A stretch of 23,359 bases of DNA from Phycisphaerae bacterium (GTDB lineage Bacteria > Planctomycetota > Phycisphaerae > UBA1845), in assembly GCA_036477795.1 (NCBI GenBank), contig JAZGDL010000356.1:1-23359 (forward strand), read 5' to 3'. Shown here piece after piece: positions 2,603 through 17,925 of the stretch; positions within the stretch are counted from its first letter, which is position 1; the number at the start of each line of letters is the position of its first letter. The notes beneath the pieces are model-generated. The model was not told where the DNA came from, did no database searches, and saw only the letters and a program-made list of their open reading frames with translations. The translations under genes were made by a program, and so were the position numbers.

Positions 2603-2796
2603 CGGGCAGTATCGATCCGGGAGCTGTGCGGGTTTCCTGCTGACTCTCCTTGCCCTTGTGTGCCATCATGTGTCCCTATTCGTTACGCTGCGCACTTGGG
2701 GCAGCGGTCTTCCAGAACCGCATACCCCGCGGGCGGCTCCGCCGTCACCCACCTTCGCCCACGCCGAACCCTCCGACATTTCCCGCAGACGGTGGA

Positions 2797-2870
2797 CGTC
2801 CCCGGCAGGGCTCGAACCTGCAACCTTCGGCTCCGGAAACCGACGCGCTGTCCAGTTGCGCCACGGGGAC
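2797..2870 (-). tRNA. tRNA-Arg (anticodon CCG)
   Basis: Minus-strand 74 nt: gtccccg tg gcgc aactggaca gcgc g tcggt ttCCGga gccga aggtt gcagg ttcgagc cctgc cggggac g. Perfect 7-bp acceptor stem, 4-bp D stem, 5-bp anticodon stem (one G-U), 7-nt loop with U33 and anticodon CCG followed by G37, 5-bp T stem with a TTCGAGC loop. No encoded CCA. Confidence 0.9.
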
Positions 2871-2920
2871 ACGGAGAAACTGAATGTACCGCCCGCCAGT
2901 GCGCTGTCAACGTGGGACCG

Positions 2921-3040
2921 CTGACGATTGACGATTGGGGATTGACGATTGACGATTGCCCATTCCGGGGTCGCACATCTGCGCTTCCTCCGTCCCTTCG
3001 TCCCTTCCTCTCCCTTCGTGCCTCCGTGCCTTCGTTCGAC
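2921..3040. repeat. Composite intergenic repeat, copy A: heptamer tandem array (TGACGAT)2-TGGGGAT-(TGACGAT)2, a ~45-bp spacer (attccggggtcgcacatctgcgcttcc), then an octamer array (tccgtccc ttcgtccc ttcctctc ccttcgtg cctccgtg ccttcg)
   Basis: Read directly. Homologous to copy B at 4290-4412 in the same order and orientation (the spacers align: attccgGGgtcgcaCAtcTgcGcttccTCcgtcccttcg vs attccgCCgtcgcaGAgtTgcActtccGTcgtcccttcg). A short third copy of the octamer part lies at 17476-17500. Confidence 0.85.
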
Positions 3041-3131
3041 TGGACCCTGCCACCCGCCATCGGTTACGCTTTGGGTCCGGTTCTGTTGGCGGGTAAAGTC
3101 GCCGGCGTTGGTCTGGAGACAAGGGCCGAGA

Positions 3132-4295
3132 ATGACACCGTTGGAAGCCGACACTCCATCGTTTCGATTCAATCGGGCAGAGGCCGGTGGTGGGTTGGGA
3201 GACCTGGGCACGTTCGTTCCGCTGCTGGTGGGCATGGTGAGCCAGTGCGGCCTGCAGCTGGGGCCGGCCCTGTTCTGTGCAGGCCTGATGAACGTTACCA
3301 CCGGCCTGTTGTTCCGCATTCCCATGGCGGTTCAGCCGATGAAGGCCATCGCGGCGGTCGCCATCGCGGAGGGGCTGACGCAGTCGCAGATTCTGGCTGC
3401 CGGCATCCTCACCAGTGTGGTAGTACTGCTGGTGGCCGTCACCGGCCTGCTCGATCTGCTCTGCCGCGTTATCCCGCGCAGCGTCGTCCGCGGACTGCAG
3501 CTTGCCTTGGGTTTGAAGTTGCTGACGCGCGGCTTTGCCCTGATCGTGGGAACGGACGTCTGGATCGGTTGGGACAGCATCGGCCTGGGCGTGCTGTGCG
3601 CCGCGATGGTGCTGATGCTTTACTTCTCCACGCGGGTTCCCGGGGCCCTGGCGGTCTTTGCCGTGGGGTTGATTGCCCTGGTGGCCGGGGAGCCCTCGCT
3701 CCTGTCCGAAACCCGGCTGGGGATGACGTGGAACCTTCCGGACCTTGCCGATCTGGCGGATTGGCGCACGGGCCTGTTTCGTGGGGCGTTGCCGCAGATC
3801 CCGTTGACGCTGCTCAATTCGGTCATCGCAGTGTGCGCCCTGTCGTATGACCTCTTTCCTCGCCGGGCGGCGTCGCCGCGCAAGGTGGCGATCTCCGTAG
3901 CGTTGATGAACCTCCTGTGCTGTCCGTTGGGGGGGTTGCCGATGTGTCACGGCGCGGGGGGGCTGGCGGCGCAGTATCGCTTCGGGGCCCGGACGGGCGG
4001 CAGCGTGGTCATGCTGGGCGTCGCCAAGATGCTGCTGGCCCTATTGTTGGGCAGTTCCCTTCTGCTGTGGCTGGGCCATTATCCCGAATCGGGCCTCGGC
4101 GGCCTGCGGCTCTTCAGCGGGCTGGAACTGGCGATGATCTGCCGCGACCAGCGCACGCGGGTGGATTACTTCGTGATGCTGGTGACCGCGGGGGCGTGCA
4201 TGGCGGTGAACACCGCCGTCGGCTTTGTGGTGGGGTGGCTGATGGCTGCCCTGCTGCTGTGGGGCGTCTTTCGAATCGAGCCGGCAGGGGATTGA
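3132..4295 (+). CDS. MOT1-family transporter (molybdate transporter, sulfate-permease-like superfamily)
   Basis: 388 aa from ATG 3132 (GGAGA upstream). LGDLGTFVPLLVGMVSQCGLQLGPALFCAGLMNVTTGLLFRIPMAVQPMKAIAAVAIAEGLTQSQILAAGILTSVVVLLVAVTGLLDLLCRVIPRSVVRGLQLALGL closely follows the MOT1 signature (GDLGT[FY]IP..., TGLLF.IPMPVQPMK.IAAVA, IP..VVRG.QL..GL). About 10 predicted TM segments. The longer ORF start at 2949 would read through repeat A and is rejected. Stop TGA 4293-4295 lies inside the first heptamer of repeat B. Confidence 0.85.
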   Translation: MTPLEADTPSFRFNRAEAGGGLGDLGTFVPLLVGMVSQCGLQLGPALFCAGLMNVTTGLLFRIPMAVQPMKAIAAVAIAEGLTQSQILAAGILTSVVVLLVAVTGLLDLLCRVIPRSVVRGLQLALGLKLLTRGFALIVGTDVWIGWDSIGLGVLCAAMVLMLYFSTRVPGALAVFAVGLIALVAGEPSLLSETRLGMTWNLPDLADLADWRTGLFRGALPQIPLTLLNSVIAVCALSYDLFPRRAASPRKVAISVALMNLLCCPLGGLPMCHGAGGLAAQYRFGARTGGSVVMLGVAKMLLALLLGSSLLLWLGHYPESGLGGLRLFSGLELAMICRDQRTRVDYFVMLVTAGACMAVNTAVGFVVGWLMAALLLWGVFRIEPAGD

Positions 4296-4412
4296 CGATT
4301 GGTGATTGGTGATTGCGGATTGGGGATTGGGGACTGGGGATTCCGCCGTCGCAGAGTTGCACTTCCGTCGTCCCTTCGTGCCTTCGTGCCTCCGTGCCTT
4401 CTTCCCTTCGTG
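4290..4412. repeat. Composite intergenic repeat, copy B: GATTGNN heptamer array x8 (gattgac gattggt gattggt gattgcg gattggg gattggg gactggg gattcc), spacer, then ccttcgtg/cctccgtg octamer array
   Basis: Read directly. Same architecture and orientation as copy A. Sits between the convergent 3' ends of the MOT1-like gene (stop 4295) and galE (stop 4419). Confidence 0.85.
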
Positions 4413-4418
4413 TCTTCC

Positions 4419-5405
4419 TCAACGGTCGAAGCCCTGAGGGTGGCTATGGTGCCACCGCCAGGCGGTCTCGATGATGGGCACGATGTCGGTGTACTCCGGC
4501 TTCCATCCAAGCTCGGTCTTTATTTTCGAGGGGTCGGCGAACAACGCCGGCGGATCTCCCGCACGACGCGGCGCGGTCACCGCAGGGATGTCATGCCCTG
4601 TCACCTCCCTGGCGGCGTCGATTATCTGCCGCACGCTGGTGCCTTCTCCCGTACCGATGTTGTAATGGCGGAACGTGCCGGCCTTCACCGTCTCCAGTGC
4701 GAGCACGTGGGCCGCGGCCAGATCTTCGATATGAACGTAGTCGCGCAGACAGGTGCCGTCCGGCGTGGGATAGTCGATGCCGAAGATGTTCACGTGGTCG
4801 CGCCGACCCAGCGCCACCTGCAGAACGATGGGAACAAGATGTATTTCCGGGTCGTGGTCCTCGCCGATCAACGCGTCGGCGGCCGCCCCGGCTGCATTGA
4901 AGTATCTAAGGGCGCAGCCGCCCAGACCCCAGGCCGCCGCTGAGTCACGCATCACCCACTCAATCGCCAACTTCGTTCGGCCGTAAGGGTTGATGGGATC
5001 CTTGGGATTCTCCTCGACGATGGGGCAAGCCTGCGGCACTCCGTACACCGCGCATGAAGAGCTGAAAACGAAACGCTGGATTCCGACTTGGGCCATCAAT
5101 CGCAGCAGGTGGACCGTGTTCACCACGTTGTTGTCGTAATACTTGAGGGGCAAGCGCACCGATTCACTCACGTCCAGGCAGGCGGCGAAGTGTATCACCG
5201 CGTCAAAGCCGCCGTCGCGCAAGGCCGCGCCCAGGACGGCATGATCCGCCAGATCGCCTGCCACAAAAGCGGCGCGCTCATCCACCGCCCGGCGGTGGCC
5301 CTGCGAAAGGTTGTCCAACACCACCACCCCGTGCCCGGCCTCGCACAGCGCCCGAACACAATGACTGCCGACGTATCCCGCCCCGCCCGTAACCAGCACT
5401 TTCAT
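4419..5405 (-). CDS. galE: UDP-glucose 4-epimerase
   Basis: MKVLVTGGAGYVGSH.. Rossmann GxxGxxG N-terminus, ...YxxxK short-chain dehydrogenase core (PYGRTKLAIE), 328 aa; full-length similarity pattern to GalE. Start ATG 5403-5405; the upstream in-frame extension to 5501 has no support. Confidence 0.85.
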   Translation of the reverse strand: MKVLVTGGAGYVGSHCVRALCEAGHGVVVLDNLSQGHRRAVDERAAFVAGDLADHAVLGAALRDGGFDAVIHFAACLDVSESVRLPLKYYDNNVVNTVHLLRLMAQVGIQRFVFSSSCAVYGVPQACPIVEENPKDPINPYGRTKLAIEWVMRDSAAAWGLGGCALRYFNAAGAAADALIGEDHDPEIHLVPIVLQVALGRRDHVNIFGIDYPTPDGTCLRDYVHIEDLAAAHVLALETVKAGTFRHYNIGTGEGTSVRQIIDAAREVTGHDIPAVTAPRRAGDPPALFADPSKIKTELGWKPEYTDIVPIIETAWRWHHSHPQGFDR

Positions 5406-7846: not shown

Positions 7847-10800
7847 CTACGGACACGTCGGCCCCGTCCATGTGTCACCCCCGCCCGCGGCGGTGGCACC
7901 GAAACATTGGAAGATGTCGGCGAAGAACGTGACCTGCTGGTCCGGCACGGTGGGCCAGTTGCCCTGCGTGTCAACCTCGATCCCAGGATCAGGCCCCGTA
8001 AAGTTGGGGAATCCCGCGGCGGCAGTGTTACTGAACTGCTTGAACAAGTCGGCAAAGAACGTGGTCTGCCCGTCCTTGCTGGAGTCGCACCACACCCACG
8101 TCGGAAGGTCAGGCCGCACCGAAGCCGCGTCCGGGCCGGCGCAGTCGATGCAGCGCGCCGTCACCGTCGGTCTCGAGATAGGCCCAATGGGGTCGCAGCT
8201 TTCATCACCGATACCCTGGCAAGCGGCCGCATCCTTGTGATCGCATAAGCTCCCGTCGTCGCACACATAACCCCACGCGAAACTGGGACACACCGGCCTG
8301 CCGGTGACATACAGGGCGTTGAGACCGCCGCTGGTCCACTGATCCGGCGTCAGGAAGTCGGCCGTCGCACAGGTGGGCTCCGACGCAATGCCGATGTTGA
8401 CCAAAACAGTTCCAGCCGGGTCGTCAGGGTAGTTCGTCCGGACCAACTTCACCCAGCCCTCGTTCGACACAGGGTCGCAGCTTTGATCGCCGATGCCCTG
8501 GCAGGCGTTCGGGTCGGCCGGATCGCACTTCGATCTGTCGTCACACTCATTTCTGGTGCCGCACACGATGTGAAACGCCACTGGATCGGTAACGCTGGCA
8601 TCTGGTCGGATCTCGATGTACCGCGAGGCGATGTTGCTGATCACGACCGGCTCAAGACACGGCGGCTCGCAAACATCGGCGATCCCGTTCGCCGGGTTGA
8701 CGTCATTGCAATTCGTGCCGTTGCCATGGAACGTCGAGCCGGAGAGATTCTCGCAGCACGCTCTGTTCATCACGTCACAGCTCAGGCCGGTGATGCCGAA
8801 ACAGCAGGCACCGACTTCGGTGCTGCACACGCTGCTCGGTCCCAGCGGCGTGGACCCCTTGGCAAGACAGCAGGCGCGATCGATCTCGGTGCAGGTGCCG
8901 TCAGCATGGCAACAGGCTTCTATTCCCAAGCAGAGACTGCCGGCACCCTGGAACGCGCCGACACACTCCGCCTCCGTTGCGATGGTACAGTTGGCGTCGG
9001 CGTCGCAGCAGGCGCCGGGCCGGTCGTCACAGCAACGCCCATTGCTTGCGCTTATGCTACCCGCGAGGTTCAGCCCGGTGACCACACCCCAGATGTTCTC
9101 GACCACCACAGTGACGCAGTTTCGCCCGACCACAAACAGGTTGGGGTCGGTGGCTTTGACGTGCGTCGGTGCTGCGGTGTTGAACGACGGCGCCGGCGTC
9201 GAGCCGATCGACACACCGTTCAGGAACACTTCGGCGGCGTCGTCGGCACGCAGGTCGATGAGCAGCCGGGGGTCGCGGAAGCGCTTGTCCAGACAGAAGC
9301 AGAACTCGTAGCAGTAGTCGCCGTTGGGGCCGGTGGTGTTGGCGCTGATCCAACGGGTACCGGCGATGGTCAGCCACATAGGATTGGGGGTGATCACCAG
9401 CGCCGGCCGCGGCAGCGTGCCTTGCGGCGAGGGCTCGCAGGTCACCTCCCAGGTATCGTCGGGATCACCGATGGGAATCAAGCCGCCGGTATCGTCGTCG
9501 ACACCGGTGCCGATGTTGATGGTCAACTTCTCCGGCGGACAGCAGTTGCAGCAGATATCAACACCGCCTTGGGGGTTGTCTACGACGGTCCGTTCGCAGG
9601 CCGTACCGTCGGCACAGGTGCCGACGCAATCCGGCATTGCCGGAGGCGGCGTCGACAAGTCCACATGACACTCGTCGGTTCCAAGGCAATCGCAATCGAT
9701 GACGGTGACGTCCCCGGTGAGCAAATCGAAGTTCACGCACTTGGGTTGACAGATTTCTACGACGGGCGTGACCGGGCAAGTGATCGGCTCACAACCCTGG
9801 CCGTCTTGCGTCGGCTCGCATATGGGATCGCAGGCATCGTCGATGCCGTTGCCGTTGTTGTCACCTTCACAGGCGGACCCGACGCCCAGGAAGCTGCTAC
9901 CGGTCAAATCCGCGCAGCAGGTCTCGTCCATCTCCGCGCAGCGCTCGTTTACGCCGTCGTTGAAGCAGCAGGCCCCGACCTGCCCGCAAACGGTGCCGGC
10001 GCCGTGGAAGGTGCCGCTCCGCAGGACGCAATCAGCGAGGCTCATGACCGCGCAGGTCTCCCGGATGCCGTCCAAATCGGTATCATAGCAACACGCTCCG
10101 ACATCTATGGGCGCACAATCGCAGGTCATATCCCCGCCCTGCGGATAATCTAACGAATCGATGCTGGTATTGCCCGTCGGGCTCCCGTCGATGTGGACCT
10201 GGCAAACTTCACCCGCAACCGGGCAATCGCCGTCGCAGGACAGAATCGACCCGCTGATTTTGATGTCACCGCAACAGTCCGGCTCACAACAATTACACTC
10301 GGTCGGCTTGAAATCCCCGCCGATAAAGATCGTGACCACACTCGGCAGGCAGGTCTCAAGCAATGTGGGATCGTCGGTCAGACAGTCGCGCTTGTGCATG
10401 TTCACGCACAACGGTACCGGCGGCGCCGGCGGCAGCGGGCAGAACTCGTCGCACGTGTCGTCGATGCCGTTGCCGTTGCCGTCACCCAGACACGGCACCC
10501 CAGCGCCCTGGAAGACGCCGTTAATGTCATCACAGCAGGTCTCGTCCATGACCTCGCAGCGCTCGTTGACGCCGTCCGGGGGGGTGTCGTCGTCGAAGCA
10601 GCACGCCCCCACCTGGCCACAGCTCGTACCGGCGCCGTGGAACGTGCCGAACAGGGCGTCGCACTCGGCCTGTGTCATCTCCGCGCAGCTTTCCTTGATC
10701 CCGTCACCGTCTGCGTCGAAGCAGCAGGCCCCATCCGGGGGAAGCGTGACGCAATCGCAAGTCGCCTTGCCGGGTGGAAGACTGAACACGCTCGCGGTCG

Positions 10801-12721
10801 AAACGCCCTGCGACACGCCATTGACGAAGATGACGCAGGGGCCCTGCGGATTCGGCTCCGGACACCCGCCGAGACACGATATCTCACCGATGGCGATGTT
10901 GATCTGGATAGGCCCACACTTCTCCGTAAAGCAATCGCACGCGAGCACGTTGATCCCGGCCGCACCGATCTCAACCGAGCTAGGCCAGCACGTTGCGTTG
11001 GGATCGTCGCTGATGCAATCCGTAGCCTGCAGAGTGGCGCAGGGATCGTCCGCCGGCGGACCCGGCAGGTCACACATCTTCTCACAGTCGCAGCAAACCT
11101 CTGTGACGCCGCCAACGGTGGTCACGGTCTCAACACAAACCTCATCGGCGGCGCAATTACCTACGCACCTCGGCTGAAGAGGCGGATCGAAAGGACTGGG
11201 CTCGGGGTGACAATCGGTCGGAGTTCTACACTCACAGTCCACGACAGTGACCGCCGGTGTGGCGCTGGGATCAAATCTCAGGCAACGCGGAATACAATCT
11301 TCGCCCGGGACGGGGCATTGGAAGGTCTTGCAGTCGGACAGGTCGTCCAGCGGTTCACACACCGCCGGCTCCGGCTCGCAAGCGCAGCAGATGCGCTGTA
11401 TACCCGCGCCGATGTCGGTCACCGTGCGGACGCAGATTTCGTCAGGCGGGCAGAACCCGATGCACGATGGTTCGGCCGCGGCTGACACGTTGACATAGCA
11501 CTGGTCCGAACCGACACATTCACACAACGAAGCGGTCACTGTACCCGAATTTAGATCAACATCTACACAACGTCTTCTGCACTTTTCGGTGTCGATGGGG
11601 CACACCACGGTTGTGCATTGGTCGGTACCCGGAATCGGCTGACATTCCGCCGGCTCGCAGGCGTCGTCTATGAAATTGCCGTCGTTGTCACCCAGACAGA
11701 CCGTGCCGGACCCCAGCGGCGTGCCGCCCAACTCGTTCTCGCAGCACAGCGGGTCCACTTCATCGCAAAGGATCTCGCCCAAGGCACCGGGATAACAGCA
11801 CGCCTCGATCGCCCCGCCGCACGTTGAAGCCGCCGGCTGCACGCTGCCGCCTTTTGCCTCACAGCAGATGGGGTCCATGTCGTCGCAGGTGCCGTCCGGC
11901 AGGCAGCAGGGTTGATCACCGGTACAGACGCTTCCGTCACCACCGTAGACGCCGCCTTGAGCCTGGCACTCCTGTGCCGTAAGCGGTTCGATGCATACAT
12001 TGGGTGGCCCCAACCGGCAGCAGGCACCGGTCGGCTCAACCGGGTCGCACGGAGGGCATGTCCAATCCAACCCGCCTTGTGGATTCTGCGTCCCAACCGC
12101 GTCAGGACAGAATATCCCCGTAGGGCACTTCTCGATGCACATGACCGAACCACCCTGTACCACAGGCCGACACGCGCCGGGCTCGGGTACTTCGCAGTCG
12201 CACTCCGACACCGCAAAATCACCCGCCGACGTTTGATGAATCACCTTAGGAACACAGGCTTCCGACGGATCGTTGGGGCAGGGGCCCTTGCATTTGAGGC
12301 TGCACGTTCCCGCAAGACAAGGGTTGCACTCCGACGTTAGCTGGCATTGGCCGGGGTTCCCGCTGTCCAGACATTCGCACGCATACGAGATCGTGCCGTC
12401 GAGATTGCCCTTGCCGAGCAGCGTGCACGTAAGTGCCGGGTCGGTACACGGCTGGCTACAGAAGATCGTCCCCAAGTTCGGATTGTAGTCTACGTGGCAC
12501 ACCGGCTTGGCGCAGTCGCAGCACTCGATGCGAATGAAATTACCCGACGAATCCGCCAGAATCTCGACCGGCACACAACCTTGGGTGGCCACCGCACAGG
12601 TACCGGCGCAGCTCGTGCCCGCCGGATTGGTCGAGCACGGGGCAGCAGCCTCACTGCACACCGGCAAGATCATGATACTACAAAACGCCATCAGTCCGAT
12701 GGGGGCAATCAGCGTCTTCAT
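7847..12721 (-). CDS. Giant (1624 aa) secreted, modular, extremely cysteine-rich repeat protein
   Basis: ATG at 12719-12721 with AAGGAG 7 nt upstream; signal peptide MKTLIAPIGLMAFCSIMILPVCSEA. Two alternating module types: (1) 'ACC' modules (aa ~233-357, 665-760, 875-966, 1236-1352), e.g. ACCFDADGDGIKESCAEMTQAECDALFGTFHGAGTSCGQVGACCFDDD..GVNERCEVMDETCCDDINGVFQGAGVPCLGDGNGNGIDDTCD; (2) 'CxC...TV...CCxCE' modules x3 (aa ~381-449, 476-547, 993-1062), e.g. CRRRCVDVDLNSGTVTASLCECVGSDQCYV...CIGFCPPDEICVRTV...ICCACE. Also a Cys-poor beta-rich region (aa ~1090-1230), a duplicated CQGIGD[QE]SCDP motif and a duplicated TTFFAD[LI]F[KQ][QC]F C-terminal motif. Confidence 0.85.
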   Translation of the reverse strand: MKTLIAPIGLMAFCSIMILPVCSEAAAPCSTNPAGTSCAGTCAVATQGCVPVEILADSSGNFIRIECCDCAKPVCHVDYNPNLGTIFCSQPCTDPALTCTLLGKGNLDGTISYACECLDSGNPGQCQLTSECNPCLAGTCSLKCKGPCPNDPSEACVPKVIHQTSAGDFAVSECDCEVPEPGACRPVVQGGSVMCIEKCPTGIFCPDAVGTQNPQGGLDWTCPPCDPVEPTGACCRLGPPNVCIEPLTAQECQAQGGVYGGDGSVCTGDQPCCLPDGTCDDMDPICCEAKGGSVQPAASTCGGAIEACCYPGALGEILCDEVDPLCCENELGGTPLGSGTVCLGDNDGNFIDDACEPAECQPIPGTDQCTTVVCPIDTEKCRRRCVDVDLNSGTVTASLCECVGSDQCYVNVSAAAEPSCIGFCPPDEICVRTVTDIGAGIQRICCACEPEPAVCEPLDDLSDCKTFQCPVPGEDCIPRCLRFDPSATPAVTVVDCECRTPTDCHPEPSPFDPPLQPRCVGNCAADEVCVETVTTVGGVTEVCCDCEKMCDLPGPPADDPCATLQATDCISDDPNATCWPSSVEIGAAGINVLACDCFTEKCGPIQINIAIGEISCLGGCPEPNPQGPCVIFVNGVSQGVSTASVFSLPPGKATCDCVTLPPDGACCFDADGDGIKESCAEMTQAECDALFGTFHGAGTSCGQVGACCFDDDTPPDGVNERCEVMDETCCDDINGVFQGAGVPCLGDGNGNGIDDTCDEFCPLPPAPPVPLCVNMHKRDCLTDDPTLLETCLPSVVTIFIGGDFKPTECNCCEPDCCGDIKISGSILSCDGDCPVAGEVCQVHIDGSPTGNTSIDSLDYPQGGDMTCDCAPIDVGACCYDTDLDGIRETCAVMSLADCVLRSGTFHGAGTVCGQVGACCFNDGVNERCAEMDETCCADLTGSSFLGVGSACEGDNNGNGIDDACDPICEPTQDGQGCEPITCPVTPVVEICQPKCVNFDLLTGDVTVIDCDCLGTDECHVDLSTPPPAMPDCVGTCADGTACERTVVDNPQGGVDICCNCCPPEKLTINIGTGVDDDTGGLIPIGDPDDTWEVTCEPSPQGTLPRPALVITPNPMWLTIAGTRWISANTTGPNGDYCYEFCFCLDKRFRDPRLLIDLRADDAAEVFLNGVSIGSTPAPSFNTAAPTHVKATDPNLFVVGRNCVTVVVENIWGVVTGLNLAGSISASNGRCCDDRPGACCDADANCTIATEAECVGAFQGAGSLCLGIEACCHADGTCTEIDRACCLAKGSTPLGPSSVCSTEVGACCFGITGLSCDVMNRACCENLSGSTFHGNGTNCNDVNPANGIADVCEPPCLEPVVISNIASRYIEIRPDASVTDPVAFHIVCGTRNECDDRSKCDPADPNACQGIGDQSCDPVSNEGWVKLVRTNYPDDPAGTVLVNIGIASEPTCATADFLTPDQWTSGGLNALYVTGRPVCPSFAWGYVCDDGSLCDHKDAAACQGIGDESCDPIGPISRPTVTARCIDCAGPDAASVRPDLPTWVWCDSSKDGQTTFFADLFKQFSNTAAAGFPNFTGPDPGIEVDTQGNWPTVPDQQVTFFADIFQCFGATAAGGGDTWTGPTCP

Positions 12722-12834: not shown

Positions 12835-12945
12835 TGGGTGGGTGGCCCACCTCGTTTCGAGGTGGGGGACACGATGATCCACACACCAACGTCGAAGCTT
12901 GTCGTATCATCCAGCCCCCACCTTCAAAGAAGGTGGGGCACCCGC
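12835..12945. repeat. ~110-bp MITE/REP-like structured repeat, copy D1 (three stem-loops)
   Basis: gggtgggtggCCCACCTCGtttCGAGGTGGGggacacgatgatccacacaccaacgtcgaagcttgtcgtatcatccagCCCCACCTTCaaaGAAGGTGGGGcaccc is ~93% identical to 17813-17925. Contains a 9-bp hairpin with ttt loop, a gatgat/atcatc inverted pair around an AAGCTT core, and a 10-bp hairpin with aaa loop. Lies in the divergent promoter region between the giant gene and the sigma factor gene. Confidence 0.85.
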
Positions 12946-17199: not shown

Positions 17200-17466
17200 A
17201 ACGTTCCCGCGTCTCGCGCCAGGTTTCGATCTCCTTGAGGAACTCGGTGTCGACTTCGGCGGTGCCGCGTTTGCGTTTGTTGGATTCGGCGTATCTGTCG
17301 AAGGAGCCCTTGAGGATGGCGTCCTTGGCGAAGATACCGGCGATATCGTTCCATTGCTTAGGGTACTGGTGGTAGGTGAAGTAGAAGACGCGGGCGTTCG
17401 ACGGCCTGTCGGTGGTGTTCGGGCGGATGCGGCAGTCGTAGACGGCGAATTCCTCAACTGAGTGAA
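17200..17466 (-). pseudogene. Orphan C-terminal gene fragment without start codon (unknown family)
   Basis: Minus-strand frame reads ..VTLHSVEEFAVYDCRIRPNTTDRPSNARVFYFTYHQYPKQWNDIAGIFAKDAILKGSFDRYAESNKRKRGTAEVDTEFLKEIETWRETRER.. with lower GC and protein-like composition, but no ATG/GTG/TTG start before it runs into the repeat cluster at 17476; the ORF-track extension to 17848 is a translation of repeat DNA. Confidence 0.3.
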
Positions 17467-17475
17467 GAGTGACGG

Positions 17476-17697
17476 CTCTCCTCCGTGCCTTCGTGCCTTC
17501 TGACAGGTGGGTGGCCCACCTCGTTTCGAGGTGTATGTGTTTAGCGTACTGGGTGGCGCAGATTGATGAACCGAAAACGCCTGATCCGAGCCCCAAGCGC
17601 CAGCGCGGGGTGACTACGCGCACCCGTCGCTTGCGCTCGGGGCTCGGAATCGAGCACAAACACGCTAAACCCGTACGAGAAGGTGGGGCACCCCGGG
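17476..17697. repeat. Repeat cluster: octamer-array fragment (ctccgtgccttcgtgccttc, 17476-17500), the D-repeat 5' hairpin (17505-17533), a ~140-bp structured insert, and the D-repeat 3' end (gagaaggtggggcacccc, 17676-17695)
   Basis: Read directly. The insert has a gtttagcgt/acgctaaac inverted pair at its ends and a long imperfect hairpin ccgagccccaagcgc ... gcgctcggggctcgg (17586-17647). Confidence 0.75.
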
Positions 17698-17812: not shown

Positions 17813-17925
17813 GGTGGGTGGCCCACCTCGTTTCGAGGTGGGGGACACGATGATCCACGCGCCAACATCGGAGCTTGTCGTATCATCCAGCCCCCACCTT
17901 CAGAGAAGGCGGGGCACCCCGCCCG
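17813..17925. repeat. ~110-bp MITE/REP-like structured repeat, copy D2
   Basis: ggtgggtggcccacctcgtttcgaggtgggggacacgatgatccacgcgccaacatcggagcttgtcgtatcatccagcccccaccttcagagaaggcggggcacccc; ~93% identical to D1, same three hairpins. Confidence 0.85.

Follow-up and report, generated by a model that had tools for sequence, protein, structure and literature searches.

Compound heptamer/octamer repeats on both sides of a MOT1-type transporter gene in a Phycisphaerae bacterium

The window described here, a stretch of 23,359 nucleotides (nt) from a Phycisphaerae bacterium (assembly GCA_036477795.1, the whole of contig JAZGDL010000356.1, positions 1 to 23,359), contains a gene for a putative molybdate/sulfate transporter of the MOT1 family with a composite short-unit repeat in the gap on either side of it, copy A upstream and copy B downstream. 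Beyond A lies a tRNA-Arg(CCG) gene and beyond B lies galE (Table 1). The public gene call for MOT1 (P0001/P0241) is of equal length and carries the NCBI name putative sulfate/molybdate transporter. Both copies (A, 2922-3036; B, 4287-4420) have the same orientation and consist of a heptamer tract, a short linker and an octamer tract, the first a G/T-rich array of GATTGNN units and the last an A-free, C/T-rich array of CCTYCGTS units.

Table 1. Coordinates of the genes and repeat tracts discussed in the text (positions in the window unless a locus is named)
Feature	Position	Strand	Description and evidence
MOT1-family putative molybdate/sulfate transporter, 387 amino acids	3132..4295	+	Pfam PF16983, E 1.7e-55; the bracketed gene
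UDP-glucose 4-epimerase GalE	4419..5405	-	Pfam Epimerase, E 3e-57; NCBI name GalE; convergent with MOT1
tRNA-Arg(CCG)	2793..2871	-	ARAGORN; Rfam 62 bits; divergent from MOT1
tRNA-Arg promoter TTGACA-16-TACATT	2883-2910	-	promoter scan 10/12
Copy A heptamer tract	2922..2960	+	~5 units GATTGAC / GATTGGG / GATTGCC; Tandem Repeats Finder and pattern matches
Copy A linker	2961..2986	+	26 nt; contains GTCGCAcAtcTGC; exact match to spacer motif
Copy A octamer tract	2987..3036	+	~6 CCTYCGTS units, one irregular; composition A0 C25 G7 T18
Copy B heptamer tract	4287..4342	+	8 units: GATTGAC, GATTGGT, GATTGCG, GATTGGG, GACTGGG; Tandem Repeats Finder
Copy B linker	4343..4364	+	22 nt; spacer-motif match and linker alignment
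Copy B octamer tract	4365..4420	+	~6-7 units, up to galE stop codon; composition A0 C25 G10 T21
Copy C, miniature composite	17460..17500	+	GAGTGAA GAGTGAC, 6-nt linker ggctct, CCTCCGTG CCTTCGTG CCTTC (2.6 octamers)
Copy D	L114 1029-1111		(GAGTGAA)x5, 4-nt linker gatt, 4.6 perfect CCCTTCGT units
107-nt two-hairpin repeat	12838-12943, 17813-17919, truncated 17504-17533		also L030 19689-19922

Tandem Repeats Finder detected period 7 at 2922-2958 and 4287-4342 and period 8 at 2987-3035 and 4368-4417, with 5.3 copies (86% matches) in the heptamer tract of A and 8.0 in that of B, the heptamer tracts giving 81-86% matches, and with 5.9 and 6.2 copies in the octamer tracts of A and B, respectively. 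Patterns describing the heptamer and octamer arrays matched far more often than expected from shuffles, and the spacer motif ATTCCGNNGTCGCANANNTGCNCTTCC had two exact matches, at 2962-2988 and 4340-4366, where shuffles predicted none. These two sites were identical at 21 of 27 positions, and ungapped alignment of A and B over 82 nt gave 76% identity, the longest perfect match being 21 nt. When only linker bases unlike those of the arrays were considered, this core (GTCGCANANNTGC) was identical at 10 of 16 positions (P ~0.003 per register). The octamer tracts contained 45-50% C and 0% A, and the heptamer tract of B was the most G-over-C-rich 50-nt stretch in the 40-kb contig described below. 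The initial annotation of this DNA had presented A and B as two composites of common three-part architecture and orientation, which the tract calls, motif matches and 76% alignment confirmed, and as microsatellite-like arrays of unequal unit number; the copy numbers bore this out, the elements being imperfect microsatellites with unequal unit numbers in paralogous copies.

MOT1 and galE converge, and the 123 nt from the stop codon of one to that of the other are wholly taken up by copy B. As had been noted earlier, the first GATTGAC unit of B includes the TGA stop codon of MOT1 (4293-4295), and the galE stop codon (4419-4421, minus strand) adjoins the last octamer of B; on the sense strand of MOT1 the 3' region opens with (GAUUGNN)n and on that of galE with (CACGRAGG)n. 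Copy A, between divergent genes, ends 92 nt before the MOT1 ATG (3132), and its heptamer tract starts 12 nt upstream of the tRNA-Arg −35 box and 51 nt upstream of the tRNA 5' end. The original description of MOT1 as precisely bracketed is therefore less apt on the 5' side, where 92 nt separate A from the start codon, than on the 3' side, where B fills the gap from stop to stop.

A copy of the window, 99.95% identical to it, lies inside the 48.7-kb contig JAZHCF011628374.1 (stretches L030 and L114) of assembly GCA_044345325.1, and we rebuilt 40 kb of that contig (positions 1-40254). These 40 kb contain A and B, two further composites, C and D, and an octamer fragment, about one composite per 10 kb. 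The third octamer array, found by Tandem Repeats Finder at 17480-17500, had been taken for a fragment next to another repeat family; it does adjoin a truncated copy of a 107-nt two-hairpin repeat, but it is part of a miniature composite, C, rather than a mere fragment. In four of the four composites in the contig the heptamer tract comes first and the octamer tract second on one common strand, the two being separated by 26 nt in A, 22 nt in B, 6 nt in C and 4 nt in D. Copy A lies in a divergent gap, B in a convergent one, and C and D in co-directional gaps. The linker core is common to A and B only and is lacking in C and D, from which we conclude that A and B are probably each other's closest relatives and derive from one local copying event. 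If four of about 29 intergenic gaps hold a composite, chance alone places two of them in neighbouring gaps about 37% of the time. How easily such bracketing arises is shown by the relative L111, where an unrelated dispersed repeat resembling repetitive extragenic palindromic (REP) elements has one copy on each side of MOT1.

The spurious nature of the open reading frames (ORFs) that run through the arrays, also pointed out in the initial annotation, was evident here as well, and public gene calls swallow arrays in the same way. The start of a HAMP-GGDEF gene (L114 1018-2583) is placed upstream of composite D, and that of a public MOT1 call (L112 10001-11206) is placed upstream of an (AATCCCC)x5 array; the N-termini of both calls are probably over-extended. 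In annotation, arrays of this kind thus create long false ORFs and false N-terminal extensions.

We propose that A to D belong to a lineage-specific compound heptamer/octamer simple sequence repeat (SSR) family of a known general kind, that A and B are a locally duplicated pair, and that the bracketing of MOT1 is largely incidental, a reading which we consider moderately probable. Replication slippage, which is accepted as the source of such arrays, would generate the tracts and alter their length, and local duplication or gene conversion would copy whole composites, which would explain the linker shared by A and B. The bracketing would be a by-product of repeat density and one local copying event and not a cassette boundary; we take it to be incidental because both MOT1 gaps are occupied in a contig where the family is dense and neither recombination machinery nor polymorphism was visible, as described below. 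Each array would resemble the known intergenic heptameric SSRs in having a G/purine-rich strand that starts at the boundary of an adjacent gene, and any function would be secondary, most plausibly that of an unstructured 3'-untranslated or terminator region. More generally, where a repeat family is dense, direct repeats that enclose a gene should not be taken to delimit a cassette.

The initial annotation had suggested that MOT1 could be a mobile cassette delimited by the repeats, or that they could mediate its deletion, duplication or amplification. On such a reading MOT1 entered, or was replaced in, the galE-tRNA-Arg interval together with one composite, which recombined with a resident composite and left direct repeats able to mediate loss or amplification; we consider this improbable. 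The gene order in relatives is consistent with it: L115, on a contig of GCA_044345325.1, holds the closest galE relative (74% identical) and has galE and tRNA-Arg(CCG) in the same relative orientation as in the window, with other genes and not MOT1 between them, and in the relatives L112 and L113 MOT1 sits elsewhere, in the order MOT1, a different epimerase and gidB. The order in L115 (508-6755) is galE, a gene of 189 amino acids, a modAB fusion, modC (TOBE), truD and tRNA-Arg(CCG); the ATP-binding cassette (ABC)-type molybdate transporter there and the MOT1-type transporter of the window, between the same end genes, may represent non-orthologous replacement at one locus. The L115 tRNA-Arg promoter has the same hexamers as that of the window, yet there is no array at the promoter or at the galE 3' end, which fits fast-evolving SSRs. 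Relatives of galE at 70-74% identity, however, lie mostly in unrelated contexts, so that synteny in L115, itself too distant a relative for calling an insertion, is thin evidence for a cassette, and none of 80 metagenomic and three NCBI MOT1 loci shared neighbours with the window. Set against their best homologues (70-76%), MOT1 and galE show about the same divergence, which argues that MOT1 is not a recent import from outside the class. The galE-tRNA-Arg interval was remodelled at some point, but remodelling is expected at 70-75% protein identity and says nothing about the repeats as its agents; the local duplication of A and B is possibly tied to it.

Comparison of the two assemblies also spoke against a cassette, as no presence/absence or copy-number polymorphism was seen between them. 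MOT1 is present and gene order is identical in both, and the window differs from JAZHCF011628374.1 by seven single-nucleotide polymorphisms (SNPs) and one 129-nt indel, the latter in the other repeat family. Slippage had been expected to appear as differences in unit number, and when this was checked on the two assemblies, one genome pair, there were 0 indels in any array and all arrays were identical in unit number. An assembly artefact was rejected, the two assemblies agreeing base for base across all arrays. A contingency locus, in which unit number varies between close genomes and thereby changes a reading frame or the spacing of a promoter, was likewise not what we found, with 0 array indels in the one pair and imperfect tracts. 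Six of the seven SNPs fall in two clusters, three G-to-T changes in MOT1 (4093, 4102, 4108) and three changes in the 5' part of galE (5340, 5346, 5364), which suggests short recombination or assembly-consensus patches and not independent mutations. No recombinase, integrase or transposase was found among the window genes checked against Pfam, comparison of the composites suggested neither inverted ends nor target duplication, and C and D occur without bracketed cargo. A length of 21 nt is about at or below the minimum for efficient RecA recombination; with no longer perfect identity, A and B would make a poor substrate for homologous recombination. A cassette or amplification role was thus left unsupported by the density of the family, the frequency of chance bracketing, the identical second assembly and the short A/B identity.

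RNAs of A and B, in all four readings, were predicted to fold less stably than dinucleotide shuffles (z +0.6 to +2.95); the two scores for B were +1.2 and +2.95, and for its minus strand 200 of 200 shuffles folded better. In searches of Rfam only the tRNA reached the gathering score and there was no molybdenum cofactor (Moco) riboswitch, an element to be expected near molybdate transporter genes, while at E <=5 the segment 2850-4480 gave two chance-level matches, both inside the MOT1 ORF. A hairpin, terminator hairpin or other structured RNA was rejected, given folding worse than shuffles on both strands, no terminator-like site between the stop codons and no Rfam match. These properties would suit an unstructured, bidirectional terminator or insulator of the Rho type, resembling a Rho utilization (rut) site and transcribed from either strand as G/purine-rich and then C-rich, G-poor RNA. 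Copy B fills the gap between convergent stop codons, in which no hairpin-plus-T-run terminator was found, and its distal half is C-rich in both directions, with 25 C and 10 G in the plus-strand octamer tract and, for the minus strand, 24 C and 3 G in the heptamer tract read as its reverse complement. A rut region is an unstructured stretch of C-rich, G-poor RNA, about 70-80 nt long, that follows a stop codon; by its sequence B fits this description on both strands, and a putative Rho terminator is possible there. Also in favour are the heptamer repeats of Xanthomonas and Nostoc, which are mostly transcribed and hug stop codons (PMC4692102), and the placement of the purine-rich octamer strand in phage contigs, described below. 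However, a terminator is not needed at A, which separates divergent promoters, and the settings of C and D differ again; relatives do not conserve the arrays at orthologous sites, no known RNA family matched, and the C-richness follows automatically from a G-rich array on each strand. We regard Rho-type termination or insulation as a reasonable but unlikely explanation of the composites.

In A the heptamer tract, which begins close upstream of the tRNA-Arg −35 box, is in the position of an activator site or UP element, and heptamers could in principle be iterated protein-binding sites that tune an adjacent promoter, with unit number as the switch of a contingency locus. A precedent is given by the TTTTGAT heptads at the Vibrio ctxAB promoter (bioRxiv 10.1101/2021.05.14.444153). 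But B and C are not beside any promoter, the units are heterogeneous within a tract and hence imperfect and poorly slippable, unit numbers are the same in both assemblies, and the orthologous tRNA-Arg promoter of L115 with its identical hexamers has no array; we consider such a role very unlikely. Two other candidate properties were rejected. Inspection of the sequences for G-quadruplexes as a common property found three consecutive GGGG runs and a distant fourth in B, one run in A and none in C or D. A three-frame stop-codon trap (TGA in GATTGAC, GGTGATT and GAGTGAA, present in all frames in A to D) was rejected as a general feature because the GATTGTC and GATTGCG arrays of other genomes contain no stop codons.

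Species-representative genomes were scanned with a linker-independent pattern of three GATTGNN units, a gap of 30-60 nt and CCTTCGTNCC, for which our own chance estimate was <1 match. The pattern occurred at no fewer than 29 loci, in Phycisphaerae, Vicinamibacteria/Acidobacteriota, Verrucomicrobiota, Chloroflexota and Xanthomonas. About one third of the matches listed were true heptamer and octamer composites, found in Phycisphaerae, Vicinamibacteria/Acidobacteriota and Verrucomicrobiota; the remaining listed matches were GATTGNN arrays with a single chance octamer, including the known GGGGATT arrays of Xanthomonas. Linkers were unlike between genomes, and one acidobacterial metagenome-assembled genome (MAG) had its own conserved version at three places. 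In 661 kb from the 80 metagenomic MOT1 relatives, arrays of period 7 and 8 were about as frequent as those of period 6 and about half as frequent as those of period 9. Their units were diverse, and many arrays had beside them a second one of reverse-complement units, as in (TGGATGAA)n and then (CATTCATC)n. Intergenic pairs of this kind were numerous among the Phycisphaerae relatives and in one Vicinamibacterales MAG (L062 9235-9302, L071 1112-1192, L102 9839-9903, L107 3761-3859, L110 5025-5099, L111 3164-3270 and L007 6577-6755); in L007 the order is heptamer, reverse-complement octamer, octamer, reverse-complement heptamer. Judged by sequence, such pairs would form hairpins with arms built from 7-8-nt tandem repeats, of which we know of no description.

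Octamer arrays were also selected regardless of heptamers, which yielded 19 IMG/VR stretches, most of them without a heptamer partner. A universal coupling of heptamer to octamer was rejected, since the octamer arrays of viral contigs mostly lack a heptamer or are paired with an inverted octamer array, and coupling is thus a property of certain genomes and not of the octamer. In phage contigs the purine-rich (CACGRAGG)n strand tends to be the sense strand, placed shortly downstream of stop codons or shortly upstream of start codons. Within phage structural operons (L121, L125, L127, L136) it lies 1-17 nt after the stop codons of terminase and head-tail adaptor genes, in L136 it lies 7 nt before the start codon of the head maturation protease gene, and in L121 it lies 8-12 nt before the starts of two further ORFs, neither with a PHROGs match; terminase, head-tail adaptor and head protease were the PHROGs matches beside these arrays. 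These arrays present tandem Shine-Dalgarno-like GGAGG/GAAGG motifs. The galE side of B has the same geometry as the (CACGRAGG)n arrays after phage stop codons. A literal-sequence search of the literature found no paper mentioning the array sequences. From these occurrences, the (CCTYCGTS)n octamer family appears to be widespread in environmental bacteria and phage contigs.

Several observations weigh against an ordinary SSR family that happens to bracket MOT1. With a linker core shared by them alone (10/16, P ~0.003), A and B are not just any two family members. This sharing would also favour the cassette, as would the G+C content at third codon positions (GC3) of MOT1, which at 0.83 exceeds that of every other gene in the window (0.72-0.77 for the remaining core genes). 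Slippage alone leaves unexplained why four of four composites have the same order and chromosomal orientation. Heptamer-octamer coupling, complete among the four composites here and rare among viral octamer arrays, is a lineage-specific feature, and the recurrence of the same 7- and 8-nt units across phyla hints at selection or horizontal spread rather than neutral slippage. What sets these repeats apart from ordinary ones is limited to two features, the constant order and orientation of the tracts, always heptamer first, and the reappearance of identical units in different phyla. The composite might be a discrete, orientation-fixed element of some Phycisphaerae, Acidobacteriota and Verrucomicrobiota, and not a fortuitous pair of microsatellites, that is copied as a unit and selected for a function, although we hold this to be doubtful. 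Candidate functions would be a bidirectional, hairpin-free transcription stop or insulator, or a platform for a protein reading 7- or 8-nt periodic sites, and its octamer half, the Shine-Dalgarno-like (CACGRAGG)n, would be shared with phage intercistronic regions. If the fixed heptamer-octamer order proved functional, it would provide a handle on why heptameric SSRs are over-represented in bacterial intergenic regions.

The window has other repeats. The 107-nt repeat is made of two GC-rich hairpins (GGGTGGCCCACC...GGTGGGGG and CCCCCACC...GGTGGGGCACCC) and is present in 2.3 copies; the public contig has an extra tandem copy of 129 nt, and no other indel separates the two assemblies. An octamer-like sequence, CCTTCGTGCC(C)TTCTGA, leads into the repeat on its 5' side and physically links this repeat family to the octamer arrays. 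A 28-nt inverted repeat (17585-17648; 86% complementary, 8-nt loop) lies in the 970-nt repeat-rich gap between the kinase-WD40 and histidine kinase genes. The minus-strand ORF at 7847-12721, of 1624 amino acids and with no Pfam match, has internal DNA repeats of about 60-145 nt that encode Cys-/Asp-rich motifs (GD.N.NG..D type), and its product is probably a large secreted repeat protein typical of planctomycetes. At 434-476, 2.3 kb downstream of the tRNA-Arg(CCG) gene, there is a 43-nt direct copy, 98% identical, of its 3' half (2796-2838). Between them lie a gene for a pentapeptide-repeat protein and one for a TIR-domain protein (663-1805 and 1886-2602), both of lower GC3 (0.63-0.69). This arrangement resembles the att sites of a small island linked to the tRNA gene, carrying cargo of the defence type but no integrase. 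In L115, tRNA-Arg(CCG) is followed by an MmeI-type restriction-modification gene.

The nearest known relatives of the heptamer tracts are the GGGAATC-type arrays of Xanthomonas, about 185 per genome, and the GGGGA(C/T)T arrays of Nostoc (Rehm et al. 2015, PMC4692102), the latter being of the short tandemly repeated repetitive (STRR) type of Nostoc/Anabaena. Literal GGGGATT and GGGGACT units also occur in copy B. Like these repeats, A and B are imperfect intergenic tandem heptamers, of about 4-8 units, in line with the class definition of at least two head-to-tail units, and the G-rich strand of B starts at or overlaps a stop codon while A lies upstream of, and antisense to, tRNA-Arg. The GGGGATT and GGGGACT units and stop-codon overlap of B and the upstream-antisense geometry of A place these elements in the class of intergenic heptameric SSRs, and planctomycetes thereby join the bacteria with intergenic DNA that harbours many non-triplet short-unit arrays. 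Members of the class number on the order of 100-200 per genome, and we counted four heptamer tracts in 40 kb. The present repeats differ in their host, a planctomycete, in their units, mainly GATTGAC, GATTGGT or GAGTGAA with few G-runs, and in the coupling of each heptamer tract to an octamer tract in fixed order. Unit numbers vary between Xcc and Xac (PMC4692102) and did not vary here, but Xcc and Xac are far more distant from each other than our two assemblies are.

Among long-unit SSRs, heptamers are the most over-represented in many bacterial genomes and are enriched intergenically, and slippage favoured by polymerase geometry has been proposed as the cause, according to the account of Mrazek (2007) given in PMC4679880 and PMC4692102. 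Long SSRs with 5-11-nt units share with our arrays a non-triplet, non-coding character, the prominence of heptamers and slippage as presumed generator (Mrazek et al. 2007, via PMC4679880 and PMC4692102). The TAACTGA repeats of marine Beggiatoaceae and some cyanobacteria (MacGregor 2015, PMC4679880) likewise form short heptamer sets in many intergenic regions, with 2-6 copies per set, a patchy phylogenetic distribution and no associated mobility gene, a likeness shared with the composites. They consist, however, of one fixed heptamer lying mostly directly upstream of start codons (PMC4679880), whereas the composites combine degenerate GAKTGNN units with octamers and occur in all orientation contexts.

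REP elements, bacterial interspersed mosaic elements (BIMEs) and miniature inverted-repeat transposable elements (MITEs) are, like the composites, dispersed, non-coding and found in any intergenic context, and can bracket a single gene by chance, as in L111. Unlike them, the composites have no palindrome, terminal inverted repeats or target-site duplication and fold worse than random sequence; the two-hairpin repeat, a genuine hairpin-type family, coexists with them in the window and is distinct from them. A compound microsatellite consists of adjacent SSR tracts of different unit separated by a short interruption, and in A to D two tract types lie 4-26 nt apart. As in compound microsatellites and the long SSRs of Mrazek et al. 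(2007), as summarised in PMC4679880 and PMC4692102, several different tracts are packed into one intergenic region. In contrast to plain members of either class, the tract types recur in one order and orientation at four of four sites and two of these share a linker, and this order, orientation and shared linker constitute more structure than a chance juxtaposition of SSRs.

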